Positions 11 to 29,318 of a stretch of DNA of 64,000 nt are shown here, in pieces (positions within the stretch are counted from its first letter, which is position 1; the number at the start of each line of letters is the position of its first letter). This DNA comes from Alphaproteobacteria bacterium. Its GTDB lineage: Bacteria; Pseudomonadota; Alphaproteobacteria; RF32; CAG-239. The translations under genes were made by a program, and so were the position numbers. Below the pieces are notes generated by a model, which searched no databases, was not told the origin of the DNA, and saw only the letters and a program-made list of their open reading frames with translations. The stretch spans positions 6,465 to 70,464 of the forward strand of contig JAZULC010000021.1 in NCBI GenBank assembly GCA_045643605.1. Direction: 5' to 3'.

Positions 11-196
11 ATGAAGAAATTAATTCTTTTAATGTTTGTAGTTAGTTTGCCATCTTGTAGTTTGTTCGGCTCTTACTATGAAGCTGAGCCTGTTGGCGTT
101 GGTCGAGCTTTAGCAGAATTGAAACTTTCTCCTTGTTCTTGTTTGCAGGTAGAGTTGATAAATACTCTGCCGGACTGGTTTGTTGAAACCATATAG
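11..196 (+). CDS. small putative lipoprotein, VirB7-like by position
   Basis: 61 aa. The N-terminus MKKLILLMFVVSLPSC has a signal peptide and a lipobox-like L-P-S-C. It lies directly 5' of virB8, where VirB7-type lipoproteins are encoded. There are two further Cys residues. No family-level sequence recognition. Confidence 0.4.
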   Translation: MKKLILLMFVVSLPSCSLFGSYYEAEPVGVGRALAELKLSPCSCLQVELINTLPDWFVETI

Positions 197-210
197 GAGT
201 TAGTTGCAAT

Positions 211-954
211 ATGGTGGAAAGTTTGGGCAATAATGGTGTTAATCAAAGATTGATAAGTAATAGCAATCAACAGCCTCGTCCTGCTCAAAAGAAAAAATTA
301 AAGGCGAGTGAAGATGCTGTCCTTGTAAATGCGAGCGAACGTCGCTATTTGTGGACTGCACGTGCTTTTGCTATCGTTACTGCTGTAACTATATGTTGCA
401 ATTTTGTATTGTTAATTACGATTATGCAAATGATTCCACTTTATCGTATTGAGCCATTTTTATTGACGTTTCAGAGTAAAAGTGAACAGGTTTACAATAT
501 TGTGCCACTGAATGGACGCATGGAAGACCGAAGGTCTATTACGGAAGCTTTTGTGAGAGAATATATTTTAAATCGTAGTACTTTTTCTTTGAATACTGAT
601 GAAATGGAAGCAAGATGGATGCCTGGTGGTACTATTCAAGAAATGTCATCATCTGTTGTATATTCTGATTTTTTGGAGAAAACAGCAAAGAGGGCTCTTA
701 ATATTATTAATAAAAAAGGACTTATGAGAGATGTAAGAATATTGACGGTTAATGAGCTTGATAGTGGTTTATGGCAGGTTGAATATGAAACAAGGGATAT
801 GTATCCTAATTCTGCATCTCCGGAAATAAATTACTGGACTGCATCTTTAAGAATTGCATATCGCCAAAAAACAGTAAAGTATGGTGAACGAATGAAAAAT
901 CCGGTTGGCTTTACGGTTACCAAATACTCTTTAATGCATAACAAAGTAGAATAA
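211..954 (+). CDS. virB8: type IV secretion system protein VirB8
   Basis: 247 aa with bitopic topology (charged N-terminus, then TM helix AFAIVTAVTICCNFVLLITIM). The periplasmic domain has VirB8-like motifs (EAFVREYILNRSTF; NPVGFTVTKYSL near the C-terminus). It is positioned before virB9/virB10/virB11. Confidence 0.85.
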   Translation: MVESLGNNGVNQRLISNSNQQPRPAQKKKLKASEDAVLVNASERRYLWTARAFAIVTAVTICCNFVLLITIMQMIPLYRIEPFLLTFQSKSEQVYNIVPLNGRMEDRRSITEAFVREYILNRSTFSLNTDEMEARWMPGGTIQEMSSSVVYSDFLEKTAKRALNIINKKGLMRDVRILTVNELDSGLWQVEYETRDMYPNSASPEINYWTASLRIAYRQKTVKYGERMKNPVGFTVTKYSLMHNKVE

Positions 955-966
955 AAGGTAAAAAAT

Positions 967-2586
967 ATGAAAAACATATCTATTAAAACGATTGAAATTT
1001 TAGGTATATTAATGATGATTGCTAAAGGAGCTTATGCCCAAGCAACAATAAGTAGTCTGGATCAAAATGCAGATAACGCAAATGGTCAATATACCCCGAT
1101 GAATATGGATTATGCCGGTTTTGGTTCTTTGGGAATGGTTCAGAGTGCTTGGTTGGATCCGTTGCAAAATTTAGGTGAAGGACAAAGCAAACCTGCATAT
1201 TCAAAATATTATTGGTCACCTGATTTAGTTTTACCTATTCGTTTGCGTGAAGGTATGATGACTTTAATCAATTTCCCGGAGTGGGAGATGGTTGAAGATA
1301 TTTATATCGGTGATAGTTCAATGTTTGATGGTCAAATTTCTGGACCTAATACTTTGTTGATGTATCCAAAATCCGGAGCTAAAATCGGAGTAGATACAAA
1401 CGTTATTGTTTTTGGACGTAGTGGTAATAAATATGTATTTTATGCAAAGAGTGAAGGTGTTAACACAGAAAGATTGACTAACTCTATCATAGATATAGAA
1501 GTTATTGATAATCAAGGTGCAAACAAAAGTGGATCTTCAAATTCAAAGTCGGCATTCGGTACGGCAGGCAACAGTCACGTCAATGCAAGTGCATGGAATT
1601 CACATTCTGTTGATTCAAGATTTACTAAACGTTATCAACATGAAGATTGGATAAAAAATATTCCTATGGATCCAACAAAATTTAGATTTGATATAGAAGT
1701 TTATGTACCAAATCCTGATGATGTAATAATTGCACCTGAAAGAGTTTGGCGTGATGATATTTTCACATATATTGATTTAGGAGAAAAATCACTCAGCATG
1801 GTACAAAGACCGATAGTTACATTGTTGGTTGAAAGAATAGAAACTCCTGTAGGATTTAGAACAAAAGGTCCTAATAATCGTTTGATTATTGTTGAAGGTA
1901 TTGGAGATATGGTAATGCGTAATGGTAAAAGAATAGTTTGCTTAAAATTACGCAGAGATGATGCTGACGGTCTAGAATTTACACCAAAGTATGAAGAAAA
2001 TGGTTGGGATGTGGCTCCTACTATTCCTGATGGTAAACAAGCAGAACAAGATCCTTATAATGAAGGTAATGTTGTTGATAATAAAGGGAAACAAACAGAA
2101 GTTACAAATCCTAATTTAGTTAATGGATATTTTGGATTTGGAACAACTCCTGCAGATAAAAAATCTTCTGATAAGAAGGATCTTGATGAAGAAGATGAGG
2201 AAAATATAGAATCTGATGATGATTTTGATTATTCTAAAATGCAACATTTGAGTGGCTATAATGGTAATGATGCAGGCAATATGTATAGCAATTATAAATA
2301 TGGAACAGGCTTTAATGATACTGCAAATGCAAATATTTCAGTAGAGTTAGGGACGGATTCAAATGTTTCTAATTTGGAAGATTTATGGAGCGAATTATCT
2401 TCAAAATATTCTAAAGTATTGGGTAAATATCAGCCATTCTATTCTGTTGACACTCCTGCCGATGGACAAGGAAAAGAATTATTCCATTTGCGAGTTGGTC
2501 CTGTAAAAGATATCAAATCAGGTGATGGTGTTTGCAGTCACTTAGGAAGAAATGGTGTATTTTGTAGCGTAGTAAGGATACAATGA
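967..2586 (+). CDS. virB9: type IV secretion system protein VirB9/CagX family with a C-terminal acidic linker and SPOR-like domain
   Basis: 539 aa with signal peptide ...AKGAYA|QA. VirB9-like N- and C-terminal domains are present (YYWSPDLVLPIRLREGMMTLINFP...VIVFGRSGNKYVFYAKS; FRFDIEVYVP...APERVWRDDIFTYIDLG...PVGFRTKGPNNRLIIVEGIGDMVMRNGKRIVCLKL). About 200 extra C-terminal residues end in a SPOR-like sequence. The stop codon overlaps the next start (ATGA at 2583-2586). Confidence 0.8.
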   Translation: MKNISIKTIEILGILMMIAKGAYAQATISSLDQNADNANGQYTPMNMDYAGFGSLGMVQSAWLDPLQNLGEGQSKPAYSKYYWSPDLVLPIRLREGMMTLINFPEWEMVEDIYIGDSSMFDGQISGPNTLLMYPKSGAKIGVDTNVIVFGRSGNKYVFYAKSEGVNTERLTNSIIDIEVIDNQGANKSGSSNSKSAFGTAGNSHVNASAWNSHSVDSRFTKRYQHEDWIKNIPMDPTKFRFDIEVYVPNPDDVIIAPERVWRDDIFTYIDLGEKSLSMVQRPIVTLLVERIETPVGFRTKGPNNRLIIVEGIGDMVMRNGKRIVCLKLRRDDADGLEFTPKYEENGWDVAPTIPDGKQAEQDPYNEGNVVDNKGKQTEVTNPNLVNGYFGFGTTPADKKSSDKKDLDEEDEENIESDDDFDYSKMQHLSGYNGNDAGNMYSNYKYGTGFNDTANANISVELGTDSNVSNLEDLWSELSSKYSKVLGKYQPFYSVDTPADGQGKELFHLRVGPVKDIKSGDGVCSHLGRNGVFCSVVRIQ

Positions 2587-5500
2587 GTAACGAAAGACTA
2601 ACACGTTCAGAAAGTTATATCAAAAAAACCAACCATGTTATAATGATGGTTGGTTTAGTGTCGCTTGTTGCGTTTGTCTTTGGTGTATTGTTGTTGATGA
2701 ATAGTGGCGAAGTTGAAACTACTTATGAAGAACCACAATTTAATGCTAATGATGATGCCTTAAATCTAGAAACAAATAATATTCTTACAGATAGTATTGA
2801 ATTTGAACAAATGGATACCGGAGAAGAACCGATTACTACAACACCATATCCTGTGGAAATGGGAAAAGTAGTATTAGGAACATCTGCTGATAATGTTTTA
2901 ACAATAGGAACTAATGGTAAAAAATCAATAAGAGTAATCTCTGTTAGTTTAGCAGATCCTCCTGCAGATGGATTTTCTTTTCAAGATGAATGTTCGGGTA
3001 CTGATTTAAGAGGAGATCAGACTTGTCATGTGTTTATGAAATGGAATCCTGTTGTTGCCGGAAATGTTCAAAATAATTTCATTATTTCATGGAAAGAAAC
3101 TAATGTTAGTACAAGTAGTGCAAAAGCCTCAAAAGTTCCTGTTCAGGGAAGTGCAGTTAATAAAGAAGATTGTAATTTCTGCGAGGCTACAGGTTCTGTA
3201 AAAACAGAAGATAAAAAAGAATTTAGCAAAAACAGGATAGCCAGAGGTCCTAATGGTGAGATTATAGGCTATATTGATGATGATGGATATGTTAGAGATG
3301 AAAATGGTAATATCATTGGTAGAGTTAATGCCCAAGGAATGATAGTAGATAATGATGGAAATATTATTGGTGTAGCAGATAATGAACAGTTAGTATATGA
3401 TGAATTTGGTAATGTAATAGGACGAGTACTTCCTGATGGAACGGTTGTAGATGCTAATGGTAACGTTATTGGCCGAAGGTTGCCTGACGGAACGGTTGTA
3501 GATGCTAACGGTAATGTTATTGGAAAAGCTGTTGATGCCGGATATGTATATGATGAAAATGGTAATATCATCGGTAGGGTTATGCCTGATGGAACGGTTG
3601 TAGATGCTAATGGTAATATTATCGGCAGAATGAGAGCAGATGGTTCTGTTGTTGATTTGAATGGTAATGTTATTGGTCATGTGGCAAAAACCGGTAAAAT
3701 TGCGTTAGGTGAAGATGGTAAACAAATCGGTGTCGTAATGCCTGATGGTACAGTTGTAGACACTGAAGGTAATATTGTTGGAATTGCCGATAAGGATGGA
3801 AATATAAAATCTTTTTCTAAAAAGAATGATAATGCAGTATATGATGAAAATGGAAATATTATCGGTTACGTAGATGAAAACGGTAATGTTGTAGATGCTA
3901 ATGGTAATATTATTGGAAAAGTTATGCCTGATGGTTCGGTTGTAGATAAAAATGGTAAAGTTATAGGAACGACCCAAAAACCTCAATATGTGTATGATGA
4001 AAATGGCAATATTATCGGCAGAGTAATGCCTGATGGTACGGTTGTAGATAAAAATGGTAATGTAATAGGACGAGTATTGCCTGATGGTACAGTTGTAGAT
4101 AAAGATGGTAAAGTTATAGGAAAGGTTGAATTAACAGATACAATAGGGGCATTAGTTAATACACAACTAATACCTTTTGGACCTGATGGAAAAGTTCTCG
4201 GTACATTGACTGCAAATGGTGAAATTATAGTGGTTGATAAAGATGAAAACAAAACTGTTGTTGGTAGAATTTTGCCGAATACATTAATTAAAAATTCTAA
4301 AGGTACAAAAATTATTGGAAAAGGTGTTCCTGGTGGTTTAATTGTTGGTTGGGGCTGTAAAAATGTCGGCTATTTGAATGAACAGGGAAGCATTGTTTCC
4401 GGCGCTAAAGAATTGCCATACAGAGTCATGCCTGATGGTGTAGTTCTTGATGAAACAAACAATTATGTTGGAGAGCCATTGAAAATTGGTAGTGTTTATG
4501 ATGATCAATGTAACTATTTGGGTAAAGTAAATAGCAGTGGTATAGTTCAAGATGATAATAGTAAATATGTTGGTTGTGTAAATCCTGATGGTGGTATTCT
4601 AAATGAAAACGGTGATCTTATAGGCAGAGTTAATGAGCCGGGCGTTGCTTTTGATTATGACGGTACATATCTCGGTTATGTTAATAATGAAAATAAGATT
4701 ATTTCAGAGAGTGGATTGCCGGTTGGATGTGTTAATTCTGCAAATAATGTTGTAGATTCTAAAGGAATGCTACTGGGAAAAGTATTTAAAAATAAGTATG
4801 CTTTTGACTTAAAAGGAAATTTTCTAAATATTATAAATAATAAAGGAGAAGTTGCACTTGGTGGTTCTACTTTAAGAGTTTATAGTAATAATATTTTGGT
4901 AGATTCTGATAACCATATTAACGGCGTTGCTTTTTCTGAACATACTCCGATAGTTAATTCTAAAGGTAGGTATATGGGCAGTGTATTTTTTGATGGAAAT
5001 GTATACGATGCTGGAGGAATGGTTATCGGACATGTATATGGTGATGCGTCAGGATTTTATAACGATACAATAGGTGTACCTCTGCATTTAGATTATGTTA
5101 TAGGCTTTAATGGAGACAAAATCGGTCAGGTGGCTTATGACGGTAAGGTGTTAAATAAGTTTGGTGAATATTTAGGCTATGTTAATGCAAAAGGTGCATA
5201 CTTTAACGATAAAGGAGAATATGCCGGAGGAGTTGTTAAAACCGGTTCAGCAATAGGTTATGACGGCGCTTATATAGGTTATGTTATTCCGCAGGGAGAT
5301 ATTATTGATTTGTCCGGTAAAATACAAGGAATGGCAACGGCAGACGGCAAAGCTCTGAATTTGCAAGGGGAAGTCGTAGGAGATATTATTGAGGAGGGTA
5401 TTGCCATAGATGTACTCGGAGATCCTAAAGGATATATAAATTCTATAGGAAATGTTATAAGCTTTAATAAAGAAAATTTAGCTATAGTATTGCCAGGTGG

Positions 5501-6020
5501 AGCAACTGATAAAGGTTTGAATTTATTAAGACGAGGAGCTGTTATGGATTTTTCCGGACAAATAATCGGTCACGTATTGCCAAATTCTGAAGTAATTGAT
5601 AAAGATGGCGTTGTTATCGGTAAAATATTGCCGGATGGTAAAGCTGTTAATCAATATGGAAAATTGGTCGGCGAACTAATTGACGGCGATATAGTTATTG
5701 ATGAAAAGGATAAAGTTGCAGGATATGTATTGTATAATGGTGATATTTTAGCTTTAGATGGTCTTGAAAATGGAAAATTATTGGCTTCAGGTGTCGCTAT
5801 TGATAAACAAAATGAAATTTTAGGCAGTGTATATAAAATTGGGGCAAGTGTACTCAGTAATGATGGAAATTATGTCGGAAGGTTAACAGCATCCGGCAAT
5901 GTAGTAGATACCAAAGGTAAAAATATAGGTTATATTAAAAATAATGGCTCATTTGTAGATTTGGATAAACATATAGCAGGATATGTTTTACAAGAAGTTG
6001 CACAAAATCGGAGGAATTAA
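2583..6020 (+). CDS. T4SS-embedded giant repeat protein (N-terminal TM anchor, Ig-like domain, DG/NG tandem repeats)
   Basis: 1145-aa uninterrupted ORF, translationally coupled to virB9. The N-terminus is a charged segment plus one TM helix (VIMMVGLVSLVAFVFGVLLLM). Around aa 90-175 the pattern resembles an Ig-like/ASH-type fold (VVLGTSADNVLTIGTNGKKSIRVISVSLADPPADGFSFQDECSGTDLRGDQTCHVFMKWNPVVAGNVQNNFIISW). The remaining ~900 aa are tandem repeats like MPDGTVVDANGNIIGRV. Confidence 0.7.
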   Translation: MSNERLTRSESYIKKTNHVIMMVGLVSLVAFVFGVLLLMNSGEVETTYEEPQFNANDDALNLETNNILTDSIEFEQMDTGEEPITTTPYPVEMGKVVLGTSADNVLTIGTNGKKSIRVISVSLADPPADGFSFQDECSGTDLRGDQTCHVFMKWNPVVAGNVQNNFIISWKETNVSTSSAKASKVPVQGSAVNKEDCNFCEATGSVKTEDKKEFSKNRIARGPNGEIIGYIDDDGYVRDENGNIIGRVNAQGMIVDNDGNIIGVADNEQLVYDEFGNVIGRVLPDGTVVDANGNVIGRRLPDGTVVDANGNVIGKAVDAGYVYDENGNIIGRVMPDGTVVDANGNIIGRMRADGSVVDLNGNVIGHVAKTGKIALGEDGKQIGVVMPDGTVVDTEGNIVGIADKDGNIKSFSKKNDNAVYDENGNIIGYVDENGNVVDANGNIIGKVMPDGSVVDKNGKVIGTTQKPQYVYDENGNIIGRVMPDGTVVDKNGNVIGRVLPDGTVVDKDGKVIGKVELTDTIGALVNTQLIPFGPDGKVLGTLTANGEIIVVDKDENKTVVGRILPNTLIKNSKGTKIIGKGVPGGLIVGWGCKNVGYLNEQGSIVSGAKELPYRVMPDGVVLDETNNYVGEPLKIGSVYDDQCNYLGKVNSSGIVQDDNSKYVGCVNPDGGILNENGDLIGRVNEPGVAFDYDGTYLGYVNNENKIISESGLPVGCVNSANNVVDSKGMLLGKVFKNKYAFDLKGNFLNIINNKGEVALGGSTLRVYSNNILVDSDNHINGVAFSEHTPIVNSKGRYMGSVFFDGNVYDAGGMVIGHVYGDASGFYNDTIGVPLHLDYVIGFNGDKIGQVAYDGKVLNKFGEYLGYVNAKGAYFNDKGEYAGGVVKTGSAIGYDGAYIGYVIPQGDIIDLSGKIQGMATADGKALNLQGEVVGDIIEEGIAIDVLGDPKGYINSIGNVISFNKENLAIVLPGGATDKGLNLLRRGAVMDFSGQIIGHVLPNSEVIDKDGVVIGKILPDGKAVNQYGKLVGELIDGDIVIDEKDKVAGYVLYNGDILALDGLENGKLLASGVAIDKQNEILGSVYKIGASVLSNDGNYVGRLTASGNVVDTKGKNIGYIKNNGSFVDLDKHIAGYVLQEVAQNRRN
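3240..6000 (+). repeat. coding tandem repeat array (8-9 aa half-units, about 17-aa double unit; consensus near LPDGTVVDxNGNVIGRV)
   Basis: Repeats are visible in the translation from IARGPNGEIIGYIDDDGYVRDENGNIIGRV to the C-terminus. The most regular copies lie at about 3400-4130, where DNA copies are identical or nearly so: the 32-mer cctgatggaacggttgtagatgctaatggtaa occurs at 3432-3463 and 3585-3616, and a 2-mismatch copy lies at 3483-3514. Confidence 0.9.
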
Positions 6021-6022
6021 AA

Positions 6023-9000
6023 TTGTTGTTGATAAATAAAAATAAAAAAATATTCAGCAAAGTTAGATTTGCATCTTTATTTTTATGCATTTTGTGTTTT
6101 GCTACAAACTCTTTTGCTCAAGAAATTACGGCTATAGATTTTAATGGCGATATATTAGGTAAAATTATTCCTGATGGAAAGGTAATAAGTACCGAAAATG
6201 AAATTTTAGGAAATGTTAATGCAGATAGTTTTGTTGTAGATAAAGATGGCGCATTGATTGGTGGTGTAGTTCCACAGGGAATTGCTATTGGTAATGATAA
6301 TACAGTGTTAGGGCGTATCAATGCTGATGGTTCGGTGAGACTTCCTTCTGGAAAGGTTGTTGGTAAAGCTTTACCTACCGGATTGATTGTTGATGAAACT
6401 TATAATTTAATTGGTGAAGTATTGTTTCCGGGGTTAGTGTATTCTGATGCAGGTAAAGCTGTCGGACGTTTAACCGGTGATGGCAGTTATACGAATATAG
6501 ATGGAAAATCTGTCGGTTTTATTTCAAGTGGAGGGTATGCTTATAAAAAAGATGGAGATTCTTATATCATTGACGGCCGGTTATTATCTTCTAAAATGGT
6601 AATTTCTTCAGAAGGTAAGTTTATTGGCAGTGTTGCTCTTGGTGGTAAAGTTACTGACTTTGATTCTAATGTAATAGGGTATATCCATGCTAATGGTTAT
6701 GCTTATAATGAAGAAGATAAAATCATTGGACATATTGTTAAAAACGGATATGCAATTTCCGATGATGGAGAATATTTAGGCTTTGTAAGCTATAATGGTG
6801 AAGTTATTAAGAATAATCAGGTTATAGGTTATTTGCGTTTTGATGATAATATCGTTGATAAAGAACAAAACATTATAGGATTTTTTGTAGATATTGCAGC
6901 AAGTTTTACTGATTTTAGCGGTAATTATATCGGTAGAATAATGCCAAAAGGAAAGGTTGTTAAAGGCAAAGATGAGATAGGTTCGGTTTTTGCAAAAGGT
7001 TTTGTTGTTGATAATGATGGTAATTTGATAGGAAAAATGGTAAATCCAGGTCCTGTGTTTGATTATCGAGGATCATTGATAGCTCATGCTTATAAAAATG
7101 GACAAGTAACATCCTTAACAGGTTCTTCAGTTGGTAAAATTATTGATAATAATGTTTTTAGTAATGTAGGAAAAGTTATCGGTGCAACATTTAAAAATGC
7201 GATTATTATTGATAAAAATAATAAATCTTTAGGAATGAATGGTGTTTCCGGAAATATAAGTTATGGTGACAGATATACAATTACGCCTTTTGGTTACGTT
7301 TATGGTTCAGATGGAGAGATTTCTGCTGAGAGTATGAACCTTGGAGCTATATATGATATATATGGTGCAGTTTTAGGATATATTACTCCAAATGCTACGA
7401 TAGTTAATAAAAATTATGATAAAATAGCAGAAATATTGCAGTTCGGATATGCTAAAAATGATAATAATAAAATTGCAGGTAAAAATATAGTTGTTGATTT
7501 TGGAATTAATAAAGCAGGTGATTTCTTCGGATGGCTGTCAGAGTCTAACCTGTTTTTGAATAAGGCAAAAAATGTTATAGCAAAAGTTTTGCCTGATATG
7601 TCTATTGTTGCTTCAGGTAAAAAGATAGAAAAAGTGTTATCTCCAAGAGATGGAAGTGCATACAAAAAGCAAATGGTAATCAATAAGGAAGGTAATTTAA
7701 TCGGTTACGTCAATGATAAAGCAGAAGTGCAAGATTTAGAATATGGTATAATCGGAAAAATTACAGAAAACGGCTATGCTTTAGATGAAACAGGTGCTTT
7801 AATTGGAGAAATTGTTGATTTAGGCACTGTTATAGATGATAAATGTAATTTTGTTGGAGTAATTACCCCAACAGGTGATGTAAGAAATTATAAAGATTCT
7901 GTTATTGGTAGAATTCTTCAAAATGGACAAGTTGTATCGCAAGGAGGCAGTGTTGTTGGTCATCGTGTGTTTAATAACATACTTATTGATCGTAACAATG
8001 AATTTTTTGCTACACCTGCAGTAAGTGGTTATGCGTTTGATGGTAAAAATAAAAAAATTGGTTGTATAGATATTAACGGATATTATAAAAATAAAGATAA
8101 TGAAATTTTAGCCGGTGTTTTGGAATATGCCCATGTAATGGGATATACTGATAAAATTATCGGAAGAGTAACTTTTGACGGAAATGTTGTTGATGAAGAT
8201 GGCAATGTAATTGGTAAAGTTACATTAAATGGCAACGTTGTAAGTGAAGACAATAAGGCTCTTGGACATATTTTCAAATATAGATACGCTTTTGATAATA
8301 ATAATGAATATTTAGGACGTGTTTTAGATAATGCAAAAGTAGTTAATAATCATAATGAAGATTTAGGATTTGTGAGTTATGAAGGCTATGTTATAGATAA
8401 TGGTGAGAAGATAGGTTATGCCAGCTATGATATGTATATTTACGATAATGATTCTAAAGCAATAGGATATATTGATAAAAACGGTGAAGTTAAAGACTTT
8501 AGTAATAATAAACTCGGTGATTTAGATAAAGGTTTTGTTTTAAATAGAAATGATAAATTAATCGGAAGAATTAAAAGAGATTATTGGGTTGTTAATAATG
8601 AAAAAGAAGTGTTGGGAGAATTGGCTATAAACGGCAAATTATATTCCCTTGATGGTAAAGTTATCGGTACTTTGACTCAAGATGGTAAGATAAAAGATAG
8701 CAAAGATAAAATTATTGCTACTCCGTATCCTCTTCAATATTATATGGGTAAGGTAAAAAAGAAACCTGTAAAAGAAGATAAAGAAATAAAGGTTCAAACT
8801 ATTGATGACGATAAGACAAATGAGGATGATACTGAAAAACCAGTAGTTTCTGAACAAAATAAAGCAGATATTGAAGATTTTAGCTCTAAAATTATAGGTA
8901 TAGCGCTTACACCTGATGGAGATTATCTGGGCGATATTATAGAAAACGGAGATGTTGTTGATAAAAAAGGAAATTTGATAGGTAAGAGAATGCCTGATGG

Positions 9001-10276
9001 CTTGATTATTGATGATGATGGAAATTTAATAGGAATAGAAGAAATTAAAAAACCAGCTTCACAAGATATATTTGTTCCTGCAGGAACTTTTGGTGATGGT
9101 GGAGCTTATGGTATCGGAAACGGTGTAAATAATTTAGGTCCCGGTGGAGGTTATGGTCCTGGAGAACGTTATAGCCAAGCTCGTGCTTTAGGATTGCAAG
9201 AAGCACAGAATTTACGTCGTCAATCTATGAGTGTTGGTAAAATAAGCACAAATATCAATAAGAGTAGTTTTGATGGATACCAGAAAGATTGGGGAGATGT
9301 TGCTCCTAAAGAGCTGTCAACTTGGCGTGTTGATATGAGTAATATGATTTTTGCTGATAAGCCTATTCCTGCTGTTTTGGCGAGATCTATTGATAGTTCA
9401 CATCCATCTCCTGTGGTTGCTTATGTTGAGAGAAATATATATGCAGAAGAGGGTAGAAATATCATTATTCCTGCAGGAAGCCGTGTTATGGGAGAACTTG
9501 CCGGGGCAGGTGAAGATAGTGGTGAAGCAAATTCTTATGCTACTAAAGTGGATATTACTTGGTCTCGTTTAATCCGTCCTGACGGTTCAATGTTTAAGTT
9601 AGAGGGAAAAACTGCTGATGCACAAGGAAGAGGTGGTGCTCTTGGATATTTGGATAAACAACTAATAAACAAATATGCTGGTCCTGTAGCTACTTCGTTA
9701 GTTACAAGTGCAATAGATGTGTTATTGGCGACTAATGATAATAGTGATGGAGAAACAGAGACTTCAAAACAACAAGCTATGTCTGATGCACGTGATAATT
9801 TTAATGATGCAATGAAACGTGTTACTAATCAAATGTTTGAAGATGCAATGAGTATTAAACCGTTAACTTATGTTCCGGCTGGTACGAGAATAATTATTTA
9901 TCCTATGGTTGATTTATGGGTAAGAACAGCTGAAGATGATGCTGAAGGTGGATCAGAATCTTTGAAAAAACCAACGGTATTCATAGATGATGCCCAAAAA
10001 TCAAAAGAAAGAAAAGATGATCAGAAAAGAGTTAATAGCCAGGTGGTATATTCTGAAAATATGTCAGATAATGTAGAGCAACAAGGCGGAGGAATGAAAT
10101 TAATAAATGATAATTCTTCTCAAAACAATACTAATAAACCTGCAGCAGGAACAGTACCTCCTGTAACTGTAAGTCCGATAGGTACACCTCCACCTCCTCC
10201 GGCATCTTATAGTTCTGAAAAGACCGGAAAGTCAAATAACACGAACTCTTCAAGCAGTGTGCCGCAATTATTCTAA
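6023..10276 (+). CDS. virB10: type IV secretion system protein VirB10 (TrbI-type C-terminal domain) with a ~1000-aa N-terminal repeat extension and a Sec signal peptide
   Basis: 1417 aa. TTG start with GGAGGA 7 nt upstream. N-terminus MLLINKNKKIFSKVRFASLFLCILCFATNSFA|QE. The same DG/NG repeats run through about aa 36-1010, followed by a Gly-rich linker. The VirB10/TrbI core then follows (KPIPAVLARSIDSSHPSPVVAYVERNIYAEEGRNIIIPAGSRVMGE; ITWSRLIRPDGSMFKLEGKTADAQGRGGALGYLDKQL; LTYVPAGTRIIIYP). The protein ends in a Pro-rich C-terminal tail. Confidence 0.85.
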   Translation: MLLINKNKKIFSKVRFASLFLCILCFATNSFAQEITAIDFNGDILGKIIPDGKVISTENEILGNVNADSFVVDKDGALIGGVVPQGIAIGNDNTVLGRINADGSVRLPSGKVVGKALPTGLIVDETYNLIGEVLFPGLVYSDAGKAVGRLTGDGSYTNIDGKSVGFISSGGYAYKKDGDSYIIDGRLLSSKMVISSEGKFIGSVALGGKVTDFDSNVIGYIHANGYAYNEEDKIIGHIVKNGYAISDDGEYLGFVSYNGEVIKNNQVIGYLRFDDNIVDKEQNIIGFFVDIAASFTDFSGNYIGRIMPKGKVVKGKDEIGSVFAKGFVVDNDGNLIGKMVNPGPVFDYRGSLIAHAYKNGQVTSLTGSSVGKIIDNNVFSNVGKVIGATFKNAIIIDKNNKSLGMNGVSGNISYGDRYTITPFGYVYGSDGEISAESMNLGAIYDIYGAVLGYITPNATIVNKNYDKIAEILQFGYAKNDNNKIAGKNIVVDFGINKAGDFFGWLSESNLFLNKAKNVIAKVLPDMSIVASGKKIEKVLSPRDGSAYKKQMVINKEGNLIGYVNDKAEVQDLEYGIIGKITENGYALDETGALIGEIVDLGTVIDDKCNFVGVITPTGDVRNYKDSVIGRILQNGQVVSQGGSVVGHRVFNNILIDRNNEFFATPAVSGYAFDGKNKKIGCIDINGYYKNKDNEILAGVLEYAHVMGYTDKIIGRVTFDGNVVDEDGNVIGKVTLNGNVVSEDNKALGHIFKYRYAFDNNNEYLGRVLDNAKVVNNHNEDLGFVSYEGYVIDNGEKIGYASYDMYIYDNDSKAIGYIDKNGEVKDFSNNKLGDLDKGFVLNRNDKLIGRIKRDYWVVNNEKEVLGELAINGKLYSLDGKVIGTLTQDGKIKDSKDKIIATPYPLQYYMGKVKKKPVKEDKEIKVQTIDDDKTNEDDTEKPVVSEQNKADIEDFSSKIIGIALTPDGDYLGDIIENGDVVDKKGNLIGKRMPDGLIIDDDGNLIGIEEIKKPASQDIFVPAGTFGDGGAYGIGNGVNNLGPGGGYGPGERYSQARALGLQEAQNLRRQSMSVGKISTNINKSSFDGYQKDWGDVAPKELSTWRVDMSNMIFADKPIPAVLARSIDSSHPSPVVAYVERNIYAEEGRNIIIPAGSRVMGELAGAGEDSGEANSYATKVDITWSRLIRPDGSMFKLEGKTADAQGRGGALGYLDKQLINKYAGPVATSLVTSAIDVLLATNDNSDGETETSKQQAMSDARDNFNDAMKRVTNQMFEDAMSIKPLTYVPAGTRIIIYPMVDLWVRTAEDDAEGGSESLKKPTVFIDDAQKSKERKDDQKRVNSQVVYSENMSDNVEQQGGGMKLINDNSSQNNTNKPAAGTVPPVTVSPIGTPPPPPASYSSEKTGKSNNTNSSSSVPQLF
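6128..9050 (+). repeat. coding tandem repeat array, same family as 3240-6000 but more degenerate
   Basis: The translation shows dozens of units, e.g. DFNGDILGKIIPDGKVISTENEILGNV, TFDGNVVDEDGNVIGKVTLNGNVVSEDNKALGHI and MPDGLIIDDDGNLIG. The array is interrupted by a Lys/Glu/Asp-rich spacer at about 8740-8880. Confidence 0.85.
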
Positions 10277-10291: not shown

Positions 10292-11260
10292 ATGAGCTAT
10301 GCCGTATTGGAATCAGTTTTAAGACCTTTAGCATATTGGTATAAACAAGATAATATAGAAGAGGTGGTCATAAATCATGCCGGGCAGATTTGGTTGCGTT
10401 TGCGTGGAAAAAGGGCTTATCCGTGGGTAGCATATAATGATGAAAAACTATCAAAAGAATATCTTTTTGATTTGTTATATATTATTGCTAATACCTATGA
10501 AATACCTTTTGATCCGGTTAGTGGTTCGCCATTAGTGTTTGCGACGATTCCAGGTGAGCATCGTTTTTCTGCAATAGCGGGAAGAAACGTTATGTATGAT
10601 GCTGAAGATGCAACAGGCGGTGTTGCTATAGCAATTCGTTTGCATAGTGAAGATGTTTCTTTTGGTTTGGAAGATTATGGTTTATCACAAGGAAAACCAT
10701 TACATAAGATTAATCCGTTGCAACAGATTGCTGATCCGGAAGATCCGTATGAGCGATTGATTTTAAGTTTGCGCAGAGGTGACCATATTTTGATTTCCGG
10801 AGCTACATCAACAGGTAAAACAACTTTTTTGAATAACCTGTTAAAAATAATTAATATAAATAAAAGAGTTTTAACAATAGAAGATACCAGAGAGTTGTTA
10901 GTTCCGCACCCAAACAGAGTACATCTTGTTCTTTCACGTACGGAGCAGACCAATGAAATGGATTATAAAAAAGTTATAGACCTGGTTGTACGTTTTACTC
11001 CTGATGCCATAATAGGAGGAGAAATTTCAACAAGTAATGCCGGTGCGATTTGGGAACTTATGGGATCAGGACATGATAACTGTATGGCGACAATTCACGC
11101 AGAAAACTCTGAAGCAGCATATCAGGCATTTGCAGATCGTATTTTGCACACATATCCTGCATATAATAGAGAAAAAACTATTGCTGAAATGCGTAAAAAA
11201 CTAAGAGTTGTACAAATTAATCGTGATGGTAACTTACGTGCAATTACTGAAGTCACTTAA
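10292..11260 (+). CDS. virB11: type IV secretion ATPase VirB11
   Basis: 322 aa. Walker A ISGATSTGKTTFLN. His-box-like GSGHDNCMATIHAE. The size and position immediately after virB10 are typical. Confidence 0.9.
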   Translation: MSYAVLESVLRPLAYWYKQDNIEEVVINHAGQIWLRLRGKRAYPWVAYNDEKLSKEYLFDLLYIIANTYEIPFDPVSGSPLVFATIPGEHRFSAIAGRNVMYDAEDATGGVAIAIRLHSEDVSFGLEDYGLSQGKPLHKINPLQQIADPEDPYERLILSLRRGDHILISGATSTGKTTFLNNLLKIININKRVLTIEDTRELLVPHPNRVHLVLSRTEQTNEMDYKKVIDLVVRFTPDAIIGGEISTSNAGAIWELMGSGHDNCMATIHAENSEAAYQAFADRILHTYPAYNREKTIAEMRKKLRVVQINRDGNLRAITEVT

Positions 11261-11357: not shown

Positions 11358-11834
11358 ATGAAAAACTCAAAATTATTACCTGCCATTGGTTTATATGCAG
11401 ACTGGTGGTATAATCAAATGAAACCCGACAAAATACATAGTTTTGTTGCTGTTCGCAGAGAAGATTTAGTCAGAAAACTAAAACATCCGCAAGGTGCCTT
11501 GTCTTTGAGACAACAGTATATGCTCTCTGTTTTAGATGGAACGGATGAAGCTTTTGAACGCCGTATAGTAGTGACAACCGGAAAAAGTTTCCACTATTGG
11601 ACGGGAAAAAGATGTAAGTTTGGAGAGTATGAACTTATACCTAATAAAACGATTGTGTGTGTTTCAGATTTCTTTTCTCTGATTTCCCCGTTTTTCATTG
11701 ATGAAGAAACTTTTGCTAAAGAATGGGTAATTGTTTACTTCAATAGTACGAACTGGAAAAAAGAGCCTGTTTGGTCTCCTTATCATCGTTTTTTGGAAGA
11801 TACAAAACGATATTTGGAAGCAAAAATTTCGTGA
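11358..11834 (+). CDS. hypothetical protein (Trp-rich, no recognisable family)
   Basis: 158-aa ORF between virB11 and a strong terminator. No signal peptide or TM helix is seen. Confidence 0.4.
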   Translation: MKNSKLLPAIGLYADWWYNQMKPDKIHSFVAVRREDLVRKLKHPQGALSLRQQYMLSVLDGTDEAFERRIVVTTGKSFHYWTGKRCKFGEYELIPNKTIVCVSDFFSLISPFFIDEETFAKEWVIVYFNSTNWKKEPVWSPYHRFLEDTKRYLEAKIS

Positions 11835-25994: not shown

Positions 25995-28900
25995 ATGAAA
26001 GTTAAATATGATATATCACAAGCAGGAAGTATGATGATAGAGGCACTTGCCATGTTGGGCCTTATTTCCATGGTTACGCCTGTTGTATATAAAAAGTCTG
26101 CAGATCGTATGGTTGAGCTGCAAGATATCAATGCTGCCAGTCAAATGAGAACATTAAGTCAAGCTTTGGATTCATATATCAAAGATCACTATAATGAAAT
26201 TACAGATGAACATAAATCAATTGACTGGGGCGAGTTAGCCAATTATTTGCCACAAGGAATTGTTGATAATGGTAATGTTTATGGCGCTCTGGGCGATAAA
26301 TATAGCGCTTTTGTAAAGTGTAGAAAATTTGGTGGCGGAGAGTGTGAAGAAGGGGATACGGGAGATGATCGTTCTCTTGTCGGATATATTGTCGCCAATG
26401 TAAGGGATAATGATAGTATCTCGGCACAAAGAGCTTCAAGAATTGCCACAATGATAGGTTCAAATGGTGGTGTTGTTGATGAACCAATCAACGGTGGTAA
26501 TTCTAAAATTTATGGTTCTCAAGGTGCATGGGAGATGGATTTGGATGCTGGTTTTAATGATCCTGTTGATGGGGCGGCGCCTGCCGTTAACAGTGTTGTT
26601 GTTGCTTCCGAAGCTGCTATTAATTCGGCTACAGAATGGGACGATAGTGAGTTTTTACACAGAAATTATAAGGCTGATAGACGCTTAAATGCAATGTACA
26701 CTGATTTGTATATGAATGATAAAGATGGTAATATGCATAATATAGAAGGTGTCGGACAGTTGATTATCGGTGAGGCCAATTCAGGTAGTAATTTTGGTGA
26801 AAGGCTTGGTAAAGAAGATGCTTTATATGTTGGTAATAATGGAAGTTCTTATTTAACAGGAAAACTTACAGCGGCATCTGAAGCGTTGAAAGTTTTGCCT
26901 GAAAGTTTAACATATCAAGTAAAAGGTACAAGCGGTTCAACAAATAACGGAATTTTCCAAATCAGTGATGGAGCTCTTGATTACAAAGTAGGTAGCCAAA
27001 ATTTGAATATCGGCAAAGATTCCGGACTTGTATATAATGACCAAAAAGGAAAAGAGTTTGTTTTGAATGGTGGTAAGTTATCTTATGATAATGATTTGAT
27101 AAAAGCAGATACTACAGATACAAGTGGTCGTTATGTCAGCTTTGTTGAAGATAAAGTGCATATCAATAAAGAGAAAACAAATGTCAATAATCAGTTGATT
27201 TCCGACAGCAAAGATTATATTGATGATGAAGGAAATTGGAGTACTGATGACGGGTATAAGGTACTCGGTAATACAACTTATTTTGATAATAGTAATACGT
27301 ATATACCAGGTTATACGCTATCTGATGGAAATCGTAGAAATATTAATGATGCGCAAACAGTTTTAACAGGTCTGACTATGGCCACTGCAATTGATACAGG
27401 GTATATGAAAGCCAGAGATTCTGAAATATCATTCTTGAGAGCAGGACGTTCTAGTCTGTCTGATAATAAAGTAGGTTGGAATTTTGAAGCAGAAGAAAGA
27501 GGCGTAAAAATTGGCGATAACAGAGATGCAAATGGACGCCCTAATAGTGAAGCAAGAATAATTGTTGCTTCTACAGGATTTATGAGATATGGTCATGATG
27601 GACGAGGTGATAGTGGTAGTGTAGATAAAGGATCTATCTTATTGGATGTTGGGCCTAACGGGGATAAAAATTATATAGAGTTAAATAAAAATGAAGGCCT
27701 GAGTACTTATATGAAGCATGGTAATAATACCTCTGTTGTAGAAGATGGTGATTATAAAGTACTGGTGAAGAAAAGTACAAGCAATAGTGAAAAAAATAAC
27801 ATCAAAATTATGGGTAATAATGCCGGTAGTATGGAATTTATAAATGGTTCTGCAAATGAAGAAAATGGTAGTGATACTGTTGATACAAATGGTCATATAA
27901 GTGATGATTATTCAGGAATATTTATTGCACCTGATAAAACTCCAGATGATAATGTAGCTGAAGCTGATGTAGATATTCATGCATCCGGGGATATGTATGT
28001 TCGTGCCGGAGTAGCAGAAACTCTAACAGATGAGGATATTGCTAATACTGCTAATGATGGCAAATTTAAATTTGCTAACGCAGGTGATATAGTATATGAT
28101 AAAAATATATATATTAAAGGTAATAATTTATTAGTTGATGATAGTACTAAAGGGGATAGTAAAGAAAATGCTTGGGTACATATTCGTAAAGGGGCAATAG
28201 AGGTCAATAGTGATTATAGTGAAAATGATAAGTCGGCTGATGAAGGCACCGGATATGTTAAAGCTGATCGCTTTGTAGTTGATAATAGTGATAATACAAG
28301 AAAGCCTAATGCGAGAACAGCGGTAGAATCAACGGAAACAGGAAGTGTGCAATATGACCATTATATGGTAGATCCTGCTTATACATCAGTTATGCATGAT
28401 ATTAAACTGACTACTCGCGGAGGTGCGCGTTTAAGTGATATTTTACCTGACTTCATAAATAAAGGTATTTATGTAGTAGATAACAGTAACTCTGAAGATT
28501 ATGTAAATAAAAGTAAGAAAGGTTCAAGTGAGTTTGCTTCGGCTTATTTAGGTAATGTTCCTGCTCCACAATGTCCTCCAGGATATGCAAAAGTTATTAC
28601 TTTAACACCAAGTGGTTGGCATATGGCACAAGTTGGTACTCTTACTAAATATACAAGTGGCGAAAATGATGATAAAGATAGATTATATCTTAATGAGCTG
28701 ACTAATTTTAAAGACACTAGCTCTACCCCTGGTTCACCTACTTATCAGCCAGTTCAAAATTATGCTGATGTTGTGACTGATATAGATGCTAGTGATCTTA
28801 GTGATGTAGCGAGCAAGGTTACAGACTTGGCACAATCAGTTGATAAGTTGTTCCAAAGCAGTACATGGATGAAAAGTGCAATTAGAGTGGCTAGTAGTGA

Positions 28901-29318
28901 CGATAGAATAGGTGAAGGACAGTTTTCTTATACAACAACAGATGACACTCCATGGGGTTGGGAAACTTATATGGGATTTATATATCCTGAAACAAAATGG
29001 AAAGAGCTATTTAAAGCTTCTGGCCTTGGTGGAGTAGAAGAAGCTGAGGGATATGATACAACTGTATATTGGAATTTATTCCCTGTTGATAAGTATTCAT
29101 TAGAAGGATATGCTACTGTATATTGCTATTTTGACCGTAAAGGTTTGATTGTAGGAAATAATTATTGGAATAATGAGTTGGTTGATACCACATATGATCA
29201 ATTTTCAAATCATAGAGACGTAACTCCTGGTGCAATTAAAGATGATGAAAATAATAGTAATGAAGCATATAGAAAGCGTCTGAATAATCCAAAGTTAAAA
29301 TATACTACCGAATGGTAA
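25995..29318 (+). CDS. giant (1107 aa) protein with a prepilin-type N-terminal leader and hydrophobic helix
   Basis: AGGAGG lies 6 nt before the ATG. The N-terminus MKVKYDISQAG|SMMIEALAMLGLISMVTPVVY fits a class III (prepilin) signal: short polar leader, Gly at -1, Glu at +5, then about 20 hydrophobic residues. The rest is a Gly/Asn/Asp/Ser-rich ORFan sequence. A strong terminator follows. Confidence 0.6.
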   Translation: MKVKYDISQAGSMMIEALAMLGLISMVTPVVYKKSADRMVELQDINAASQMRTLSQALDSYIKDHYNEITDEHKSIDWGELANYLPQGIVDNGNVYGALGDKYSAFVKCRKFGGGECEEGDTGDDRSLVGYIVANVRDNDSISAQRASRIATMIGSNGGVVDEPINGGNSKIYGSQGAWEMDLDAGFNDPVDGAAPAVNSVVVASEAAINSATEWDDSEFLHRNYKADRRLNAMYTDLYMNDKDGNMHNIEGVGQLIIGEANSGSNFGERLGKEDALYVGNNGSSYLTGKLTAASEALKVLPESLTYQVKGTSGSTNNGIFQISDGALDYKVGSQNLNIGKDSGLVYNDQKGKEFVLNGGKLSYDNDLIKADTTDTSGRYVSFVEDKVHINKEKTNVNNQLISDSKDYIDDEGNWSTDDGYKVLGNTTYFDNSNTYIPGYTLSDGNRRNINDAQTVLTGLTMATAIDTGYMKARDSEISFLRAGRSSLSDNKVGWNFEAEERGVKIGDNRDANGRPNSEARIIVASTGFMRYGHDGRGDSGSVDKGSILLDVGPNGDKNYIELNKNEGLSTYMKHGNNTSVVEDGDYKVLVKKSTSNSEKNNIKIMGNNAGSMEFINGSANEENGSDTVDTNGHISDDYSGIFIAPDKTPDDNVAEADVDIHASGDMYVRAGVAETLTDEDIANTANDGKFKFANAGDIVYDKNIYIKGNNLLVDDSTKGDSKENAWVHIRKGAIEVNSDYSENDKSADEGTGYVKADRFVVDNSDNTRKPNARTAVESTETGSVQYDHYMVDPAYTSVMHDIKLTTRGGARLSDILPDFINKGIYVVDNSNSEDYVNKSKKGSSEFASAYLGNVPAPQCPPGYAKVITLTPSGWHMAQVGTLTKYTSGENDDKDRLYLNELTNFKDTSSTPGSPTYQPVQNYADVVTDIDASDLSDVASKVTDLAQSVDKLFQSSTWMKSAIRVASSDDRIGEGQFSYTTTDDTPWGWETYMGFIYPETKWKELFKASGLGGVEEAEGYDTTVYWNLFPVDKYSLEGYATVYCYFDRKGLIVGNNYWNNELVDTTYDQFSNHRDVTPGAIKDDENNSNEAYRKRLNNPKLKYTTEW

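Follow-up and report, generated by a model that had tools for sequence, protein, structure and literature searches.

VirB10 spans both membranes in type IV secretion systems (T4SSs) and links the ATP used at the inner membrane to pore gating in the outer membrane; its two well-known repeat-expanded versions, CagY and DotG, are parts of effector-injecting machines that rank among the largest and most thoroughly studied. Here we analyze a 64,000-nucleotide stretch of contig JAZULC010000021.1 (assembly GCA_045643605.1) from an alphaproteobacterium, to which we refer as the window. At its start lies a T4SS operon with two repeat-rich genes between virB9 and virB11: an open reading frame (ORF) that we call ORF-X, and virB10 itself. 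Our analysis suggests that these two genes are the halves of a single giant VirB10.

CagY is a giant VirB10 homologue whose repeat regions lie N-terminal to its TrbI domain and change in repeat number by recombination (PMC2581425, PMC2194252); these repeats are alpha-helical modules (PMC2581425). DotG/IcmE carries a VirB10-like TrbI C-terminus after variable pentapeptide repeats and reaches lengths of 1,000 to >1,500 amino acids (aa) (PMC6761968). The first-pass annotation of the window, made from the letters alone, judged its repeat to resemble neither of these, and our analysis bears this out: the repeat is predicted to be all-beta and has a period of 17 aa, as opposed to alpha-helical modules or pentapeptides. 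Length is constant over about 90% of the array, and the protein is apparently split; the repeats of CagY vary extensively, and CagY is unsplit. Unlike the system of DotG, this one is VirB-type (type IVA), with VirB8, VirB9, and VirB11.

Canonical VirB10 proteins (A. tumefaciens VirB10, pKM101 TraF, R388 TrwE, H. pylori ComB10) resemble the window protein in their TrbI barrel and in the position of the gene between virB9 and virB11, and the unsplit relatives of the window protein also keep the canonical order of cytoplasmic tail, transmembrane helix, periplasmic region, and barrel. The differences are in length and layout: the proteins are 3-5 times longer, 850-1,650 aa of hairpins together with an immunoglobulin-like (Ig-like) domain replace the proline-rich linker, and in the window the barrel half carries a putative signal peptide and no transmembrane anchor. 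The rvh T4SS of Rickettsiales is chromosomal and vertically inherited, with a duplicated virB8 and a virB8-virB9-virB10-virB11 block; its RvhB10 is of ordinary size. The system described here is like rvh in being chromosomal and alphaproteobacterial and in the duplicated virB8 of related loci, and unlike rvh in its ORF-X, its hairpin arrays, and the SPOR-like end of its VirB9, none of which, to our knowledge, has been described for rvh.

Neither a T4SS in these bacteria nor a VirB10 with the repeat seen here is the subject of any paper that we could find. The first-pass annotation had allowed that the repeat might be routinely fused to VirB10 in genomes already described. It is indeed routinely fused in related metagenome-assembled genomes (MAGs), but no published description of the fusion came to light; the parts (T4SS, TrbI, and the beta-flower, DUF3659, and YD families) are known, and their combination is, as far as we found, new.

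Two genes of the VirB10 region carry long arrays of a 17-residue repeat

The ORF calls agree with the first-pass annotation in placing two ORFs, of 1145 and 1417 aa, between virB9 and virB11, the second ending in a VirB10/TrbI domain (Table 1). The nearest solved relative of this domain is ComB10 (2bhv, E 8.6e-22), followed by TrwE (7o3j), TraF (3jqo), CagY (8cb2, 9vgf), and Xanthomonas VirB10. The region between the N-terminus of VirB10 and the barrel contains 2.1% Pro and 12.6% Gly and is predicted to be all-beta; it is not a proline-rich linker.

Autocorrelation of the translations (BLOSUM62) peaks at offsets of 17, 34, and 51 residues, more than 10 standard deviations above shuffled sequences, over ORF-X aa 225-1145 and VirB10 aa 31-900. 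No 17-residue peak appears in VirB10 aa 1010-1417, the TrbI half, and no 85-aa super-period in the autocorrelation of the arrays. Cutting at G-x2-3-h-G yields units such as RVMPDGTVVDANGNIIG. A 17-position hidden Markov model (HMM) built from the best copies proved too narrow for degenerate units: its counts were only 26 for ORF-X and 9 for VirB10. The autocorrelation was used in its place, together with the strands predicted by AlphaFold2 (AF2). On this basis the repeat occupies 80% of ORF-X (aa ~218-1134) and two stretches of VirB10 (aa 33-905 and 955-1005), a total of ~1,840 codons that comes close to the ~1,900 first estimated. Almost all of the invariant columns are Gly, Asp, or Pro, that is, turn positions. 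Tandem Repeats Finder detects periods of 51 and 153 nt in the DNA only at 3393-3676 and 3840-4122; because just these two short stretches are detectable at this level, most of the array must be old and diverged. A degenerate copy suspected in the linker of VirB9 did not survive closer inspection: it scores weakly and is kept in no orthologue, and the linker is a variable low-complexity stretch.

GC skew is 0.34-0.40 over the repeat-coding region (2001-10000), compared with ~0-0.25 elsewhere, and probably stems from the Gly/Asp/Val-rich codon content. Several antisense ORFs of 89-100 aa (e.g. 3269-3571) are by-products of the repeat.

In sister lineages the two genes correspond to one giant virB10

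A scan of one genome per species returned 48 related loci, all of them in MAGs of uncultured gut Alphaproteobacteria, 46 with enough upstream DNA. The sources are human, mouse, sheep, deer, rumen, and others; some of the MAGs are mislabelled "Azospirillum sp.", and we take the relatives to belong to a GTDB RF32-type lineage. The scanned collection does not contain the window's own species, and the best identity is 64%, in the C-terminus of VirB10. All 46 loci share the order (virB8')-virB8-virB9-X-virB10-virB11, in which VirB9 measures 509-574 aa, the ORF-X product 1037-1372 aa, and VirB10 1444-1888 aa; virB8' denotes the duplicated virB8 seen in related loci. Two apparent short, repeat-free VirB10 relatives (P0013, P0030) were rejected as broken gene calls with a repeat ORF just upstream, and L049 and L051 show split ORF calls.

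A different arrangement came from an exhaustive search, a profile search with the N-terminus of ORF-X having given only fragments. Here the N-terminal motif, transmembrane helix, and Ig-like domain characteristic of ORF-X are found on giant proteins: P0129 (1930 aa), P0148 (1498 aa), and a further six of 2152-2363 aa (P0294, P0301, P0310, P0314, P0316, P0339). TrbI was found by scanning at the C-terminus of P0129, P0148, P0294, P0301, P0314, and P0316, and P0310 and P0339 align to the window VirB10 through its TrbI region. In order, the giants run from a cytoplasmic tail and one transmembrane helix through an Ig-like domain and a hairpin array of 850-1,650 aa to the TrbI barrel. The operon of P0129 (L054) reads 62-aa ORF-virB8-virB9-virB10(1930 aa)-virB11, without ORF-X. 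ORF-X is also missing from the operon on the contig of P0148, from L055 (P0120), where nothing but a scaffold gap of 10 Ns breaks the call of the giant gene, and from L056 and L057, which carry one and the same 2350-aa gene (P0301) in assemblies independent of each other. That the unsplit genes are chimeric mis-assemblies is unlikely, since P0301 is identical in both.

ORF-X aligns to the giants from aa 1 to ~1130, and VirB10 from aa ~800/900 to the end. The Cys quartet in the ORF-X array (592/643/665/716) matches a quartet at ~515-640 of the giants, and the VirB10 pair (608/681) matches the giants' pair at ~1410-1545, at equal distance from TrbI. Because the alignments and the Cys landmarks agree, ORF-X and VirB10 tile one ancestral-type gene with an overlap of ~200 aa. 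The first-pass annotation took ORF-X for an extra gene, but it is the front half of VirB10, which sister lineages encode in one piece. The two arrays are also collinear homologues over 984 columns (hhalign, probability 100%, E 6e-114). Judging from the sequences, the split could have arisen by fission where two array blocks meet, or else by a duplication that was followed by complementary truncation.

The ends of the two proteins are consistent with this division. The window VirB10 has no cytoplasmic tail or transmembrane helix on the barrel polypeptide; both are on ORF-X, whose N-terminal motif (L-T-H/N-S-E-x-Y-V/I-K-K-T-N) is common to the 46 orthologues and the unsplit giants. The VirB10 N-termini of the 46 orthologues consist of a variable basic/hydrophobic n/h region and AxA, followed by an invariant QEITAI(D/N)FNG; a variable region and AxA ahead of an invariant mature N-terminus are typical of Sec signal peptides that are cleaved, so VirB10 is probably processed at this site.

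Behind the transmembrane helix of ORF-X, Foldseek matches the AF2 model of the Ig-like domain (aa 85-192) to the PapD-like domains of HYDIN/CEP192, with TMt up to 0.70, and this region contains invariant Cys at 137/148/197/200. The Ig-like domain itself (ORF-X aa ~80-170) is very widespread, matching 783 representative proteins at E<=1e-3; there are up to 34 copies in one protein, and P0270 (4358 aa) is among the matches.

Each array combines a fixed-length body with a single length hot spot

Comparison of the orthologues shows where length changes are tolerated. The variation in VirB10 (1417-1888 aa) is confined to one insert between "PLQYY" and "(I/L)TPDGEYLG", and the length of this insert follows the total length with a Spearman rho of 0.99. 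By these landmarks the window has the shortest insert of all, at 59 aa; elsewhere it reaches 402 aa of canonical units. The first VirB10 array ends at aa 895-906 in the orthologues with a mappable end landmark. ORF-X has a hot spot of its own, the block at aa 401-520, which measures 15-329 aa in orthologues; there are essentially no indels elsewhere across the 46. Even between two strains with 94.6% identity, an indel of 58 aa (~3 units) is seen at the hot spot of VirB10. Differences of 17 aa between near-identical VirB10s were considered as unit indels and rejected, as they reflect alternative start-codon calls. The pattern in these sequences is one of a rigid, exact-length body with one adjustable stretch per protein. 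In CagY and DotG, by contrast, recombination makes the repeat regions vary broadly.

The Cys residues of the arrays are equally constant. VirB10 aa 33-905 contains exactly two (codons 7844-7846 and 8063-8065), invariant in 118/118 sequences, and the quartet of ORF-X is invariant in 46/46; in both arrays the pairs are 73 residues apart (4x17+5). Such invariant pairs fit an oxidizing compartment. If they form disulfides, hairpin n would touch hairpin n+4, which fits ~4-5 hairpins per turn as in beta-flowers; weakly enriched covariation at separations of 71-74 and 91-94 would fit this number too.

The repeat matches beta-flower, DUF3659, and YD families

The repeat had been called unrecognised in the first-pass annotation; our scans correct this, with several family models matching above their cut-offs. 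The strongest is PF21785 (Bflower_2, the 5-fold beta-flower), which scores 204.3 bits on ORF-X (E 3.7e-61, 10 stretches) and 173 bits on VirB10 (E 2e-51, 9 stretches) against a Pfam cut-off of 38. PF21784, the 4-fold beta-flower, reaches 84.4 and 49.1 bits on the two proteins (cut-off 25), and PF12396 (DUF3659) is above cut-off on both. ORF-X additionally matches PF05593 (RHS_repeat; 59.5 bits, cut-off 22) and the YD repeat TIGR01643 (69.7 bits, cut-off 15.8), while the window VirB10 has no RHS match at E<=0.01 in the Pfam scan. There is no match to the pentapeptide repeat family of Pfam. These assignments are mirrored in database labels: orthologues of ORF-X appear as "DUF3659 domain-containing protein" at NCBI and some as "YD repeat-containing protein" at JGI.

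The beta-flower families (PF21784, PF21785, PF21786; clan CL0395) go back to Durairaj et al. 2023, who built them on AlphaFold models (PMC10584680). A beta-flower is a small closed barrel of ~100 aa with 8-12 short strands, 4-, 5-, or 6-fold symmetry, and [DNEQ]xxG tips; the families have no relative in the PDB and no assigned function (PMC10584680). The arrays described here are like beta-flowers in their strong HMM scores, in the [DNEQ]xxG tip motif present in their units, in their short strands, and in the 4-5 hairpins per turn suggested by the Cys spacing. They are unlike the described ~100-aa closed barrels in that more than 50 hairpins follow one another without a break within a T4SS channel protein, where they may close into separate flowers or form one spiral.

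The arrays are predicted to be all-beta, with weak indications against a thin rod

The AF2 model of ORF-X (mean pLDDT, the per-residue confidence, 80.1; predicted TM-score, pTM, 0.66) consists of a transmembrane helix, an Ig-like domain, and unbroken hairpins from aa 218 to 1134, in which a 5-residue strand, a 4-residue turn, a 3-residue strand, and a 5-residue turn alternate. The VirB10 array (aa 35-1010) is predicted with a pLDDT of 88.8 and a pTM of 0.84, only the hot-spot linker being disordered. The models of both arrays thus agree with the beta-hairpin repeat that had been proposed. As to the accompanying suggestion of a rod or sheath, weak indications favor a compact spiral over a thin rod; a tube, a stack of beta-flowers, and a shell are all possible shapes. 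A fold search against BFVD gave poor matches to phage fibres, with a root-mean-square deviation (rmsd) of 50-86 Å. As for the proposal that the repeat enlarges the periplasmic part of the machine, the topology favors it.

A probable split VirB10 with a proposed periplasmic scaffold

We interpret the region as a giant VirB10 split into two genes, whose arrays would form an enlarged periplasmic scaffold and whose halves would re-associate; we give this reading a probability of about 0.55. The ancestral-type VirB10 would have placed its hairpin array between the inner-membrane anchor and the outer-membrane barrel. Since the array lies between the transmembrane anchor and the barrel in the unsplit proteins, it would be periplasmic, in place of the proline-rich linker. 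In the clade of the window, ORF-X would have retained the tail, the transmembrane helix, the Ig-like domain, and the first array, and VirB10 would have gained a cleavable signal peptide while holding on to the barrel and the second array. The constant length of the array, its high predicted rigidity, and its conserved Cys pairs speak for a structural element, presumably a rigid beta structure of constant length, probably stapled by disulfides, with one hot spot per protein where canonical units would come and go. Together the arrays could form a stalk, cage, or ring in the periplasm of the secretion machine. ORF-X and VirB10 would then bind non-covalently and couple the inner-membrane/ATPase side to the outer-membrane channel; in the split form, continuity between ATPase and pore would depend on such binding, and the collinear paralogous arrays are the obvious candidates for the contact.

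Several points weigh against this interpretation. What supports it is sequence and models, and the relatives are all uncultured MAGs. AF2 was run on shallow alignments (29 and 32 sequences) of internally repetitive proteins. The total lengths of ORF-X and VirB10 do not covary (rho -0.24), and mutual information over 56 non-redundant VirB10 arrays (effective number of sequences 42) is noisy, with marginal enrichment at separations of 71-74 and 91-94. Conservation of the ORF-X C-terminus may in part be a translational constraint from the ribosome-binding site embedded there. Finally, BLAST scores of the arrays alone do not discriminate fission from duplication and complementary truncation.

A more far-reaching version, which we put forward tentatively as possible on the unlikely side, is that ORF-X and VirB10 are halves of a channel subunit that underwent fission and that their paralogous, fixed-length, disulfide-stapled arrays dock onto each other. 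Repeated around the ring of the core complex, the docked arrays would create a periplasmic chamber or tube of a new kind from beta-flower/YD-like spirals, with the hot spot of canonical repeats as an adjustable spacer. If so, this structure would be one found in no structurally characterized T4SS, and it would mean an unusually large contact-dependent secretion machine in a widespread clade of uncultured gut Alphaproteobacteria, in all genomes examined.

Alternative explanations for the arrays

The arrays might instead bind glycan or peptidoglycan, in a lectin-like or cell-wall-binding manner, and so fasten or space the machine or grip a polymer of the target cell. The SPOR-like, peptidoglycan-binding end on VirB9 of the same operon would suit such a role, as would the fact that only the turn Gly, Asp, and Pro are invariant and the surfaces vary. 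We nevertheless consider it unlikely: the arrays match no cell-wall-binding, choline-binding, or lectin family in Pfam and have no sequence relative in the PDB (best match aFGF, E 0.45), and a length kept strictly constant over ~870 aa is more in line with a defined architecture than with repeats that serve avidity. Another thought is a shell (cocoon) of the Rhs/YD type around cargo or a part of the machine, perhaps built jointly in the manner of TcB and TcC, two proteins that form one shell. The arrays resemble such shells (7pq5, TcB/TcC 4igl, teneurins) in the YD and RHS models above cut-off on ORF-X and in their length of ~900-1,000 aa. When the VirB10 array was searched against the PDB with Foldseek, the best fold matches were Rhs shells of type VI secretion systems (7pq5, E 1.3e-23, probability 0.92; 8qja) and then TcB/TcC, over the full length of ~1,000 residues; fixed length and high pTM would also suit a closed object. 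Yet these fits have TM-scores of 0.06-0.09 and an rmsd of ~30 Å, and strong E-values with such low TM-scores indicate a local hairpin geometry like that of Rhs and a global shape unlike it. Units here measure 17 aa and have strands of 3 and 5 residues, as opposed to ~21 aa with long strands; the 73-aa Cys spacing suggests ~4.3 hairpins per turn, compared with 12-15 in an Rhs shell; and the beta-flower models far outscore the RHS models. Pfam and NCBIfam scans of both proteins found no RHS core, aspartyl-protease motif, or toxin family, nor is there the C-terminal toxin arrangement of Rhs proteins, as ORF-X ends directly after its array and VirB10 ends in TrbI. We regard a shell of this type as improbable.

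An adhesin or sheath that is exposed on the surface and antigenically variable, as proposed for CagY, also seems quite unlikely. The bacteria are host-associated, copy number at the hot spot differs even between 95%-identical strains, and CagY and DotG provide precedents (PMC2581425, PMC6761968). About 90% of each array, however, never changes length across 46 species; the array is N-terminal to the barrel, and its place between the transmembrane anchor and the barrel in the unsplit forms is the periplasm. The invariant Cys pairs fit periplasmic folding as well, although they are compatible with export. As for an assembly artefact, which the first-pass annotation had flagged, or a decaying pseudogene, repeat-rich regions do assemble poorly and some gene calls are broken (P0013, P0030, P0120). 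Against this stand at least 46 independent MAG assemblies that share the gene order, with intact ORFs of matching length and arrays almost free of indels; the units are mostly divergent at the DNA level, and the broken call in L055 was traced to its scaffold gap. We regard the chance of an artefact or pseudogene as next to negligible. The reading that accounts best for these observations remains, in our view, a giant VirB10 in two parts with periplasmic arrays.

Operon layout and neighboring genes

Table 1. Coordinates of the T4SS operon and of features within ORF-X and VirB10 (nt, position in the window).
Feature	nt	Strand	Residues	Remarks
Lipoprotein-like ORF (MKKLILLMFVVSLPSC...)	11-196	+	61 aa	lipobox-like LPSC; candidate VirB7-like component
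virB8	211-954	+	247 aa	PF04335, 81.8 bits
virB9	967-2586	+	539 aa	CagX aa 79-326 (41.2 bits), variable low-complexity linker, SPOR-like C-terminus
VirB9 SPOR-like domain	2338-2577	+	aa 458-537	19.6 bits, cut-off 21
ORF-X	2583-6020	+	1145 aa	between virB9 and virB10
ORF-X cytoplasmic motif and one transmembrane helix	2583-2702	+	aa 1-40	AF2 helix aa 10-39; motif in 46 orthologues
ORF-X Ig-like (ASH/PapD-like) domain	2832-3167	+	aa 84-195	weak Pfam ASH and choice-of-anchor D matches
ORF-X hairpin array	3234-5984	+	aa 218-1134	~54 beta-hairpins of 17 aa
ORF-X length-variable block	3783-4142	+	aa 401-520	canonical units with DNA-level repeats
ORF-X/virB10 junction	6010-6025	+		GGAGGA Shine-Dalgarno in last ORF-X codons; TAA 6018-6020; TTG 6023
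virB10	6023-10276	+	1417 aa	TTG start
VirB10 putative Sec-type signal peptide	6023-6118	+	aa 1-32	...NSFA / QEITAIDFNG
VirB10 fixed-length array	6119-8737	+	aa 33-905	~51 hairpins
VirB10 charged low-complexity linker	8738-8884	+	aa 906-954	length hot spot; pLDDT <50
VirB10 three canonical hairpins before Gly-rich linker	8885-9037	+	aa 955-1005	
VirB10 TrbI beta-barrel	9347-9916	+	aa 1109-1298	PF03743, 121.1 bits, cut-off 35
VirB10 low-complexity tail	9917-10276	+	~120 aa	ends ...SVPQLF (10256-10273)
virB11 ATPase	10292-11260	+	322 aa	TIGR02788 137.6 bits, PF00437

The genes of the operon are tightly packed (Table 1). The stop codon of virB9 and the start codon of ORF-X overlap as ATGA, and 2 nt separate the stop of ORF-X from the start of virB10; this overlap and the short gap with its Shine-Dalgarno sequence indicate that virB9, ORF-X, and virB10 are translationally coupled. 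The GGAGGA of virB10 (6010-6020) coincides with the Arg-Arg codons of the conserved ORF-X C-terminus, ...QNRRN. At the other end of VirB10, nearly all orthologues keep a terminal P-x-L-F, and the giants end in PELF or PRLF; this conservation suggests a docking motif.

Upstream, counterparts of the small lipoprotein-like ORF, 58-65 aa long, are kept at the same position before virB8 in L052-L056, and by sequence and position this ORF is a candidate for the VirB7 equivalent. The SPOR-like C-terminus of VirB9 falls just below the cut-off in the window, and SPOR matches are found at this place in 7/8 orthologues, 5/8 at or above the cut-off. We know of no earlier description of a VirB9-SPOR fusion. 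Such an end on VirB9 suggests an attachment of the enlarged machine to peptidoglycan as well.

The window has a G+C content of ~33%. The other ORFs with family matches scanned across the 64 kb are all housekeeping genes (UvrA/B, PriA, SpoT, ATP synthase, transketolase, BamB, Der, FadL), and the operon is therefore chromosomal; tolB and ruvX were named by reading of their translations. In the window virB11 is not followed by virD4, a further difference from rvh. The next ORF after virB11 is one of 158 aa (11358-11834, +) with no Pfam or NCBIfam match. BLAST against the 48 related loci gave no match for it or for tolB, both downstream of virB11.

Two large ORFs on the + strand, of 1107 aa (25995-29318) and 1344 aa (52904-56938), match no Pfam family at E<=1e-5 and could encode effectors or surface proteins. 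We considered them as homologues of a 1324-aa Pfam-less ORF upstream of the L052 operon and rejected this, as there is no homology. Large ORFs without Pfam matches (703-1555 aa) lie upstream of the duplicated virB8 in L052 (2444-6418), L053 (1813-6480), and L056 (2449-4560), and they may encode components of the T4SS, such as divergent VirB6-like proteins; this region upstream of the virB8 duplicates lies outside the window, which begins too late to cover it.

Significance

With the array-bearing VirB10 described here, CagY and DotG are joined by a third and independent type of repeat expansion in VirB10, one that places a beta-flower-type repeat in a concrete cellular context. The apparent natural split of VirB10 into an inner-membrane and an outer-membrane part offers a direct test of how far energy coupling depends on covalent continuity. 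The carriers are uncultured gut Alphaproteobacteria, known from metagenomes of humans, ruminants, mice, and other animals. In such bacteria a giant T4SS that is chromosomal and conserved points to contact-dependent interaction with the host or with neighboring cells.

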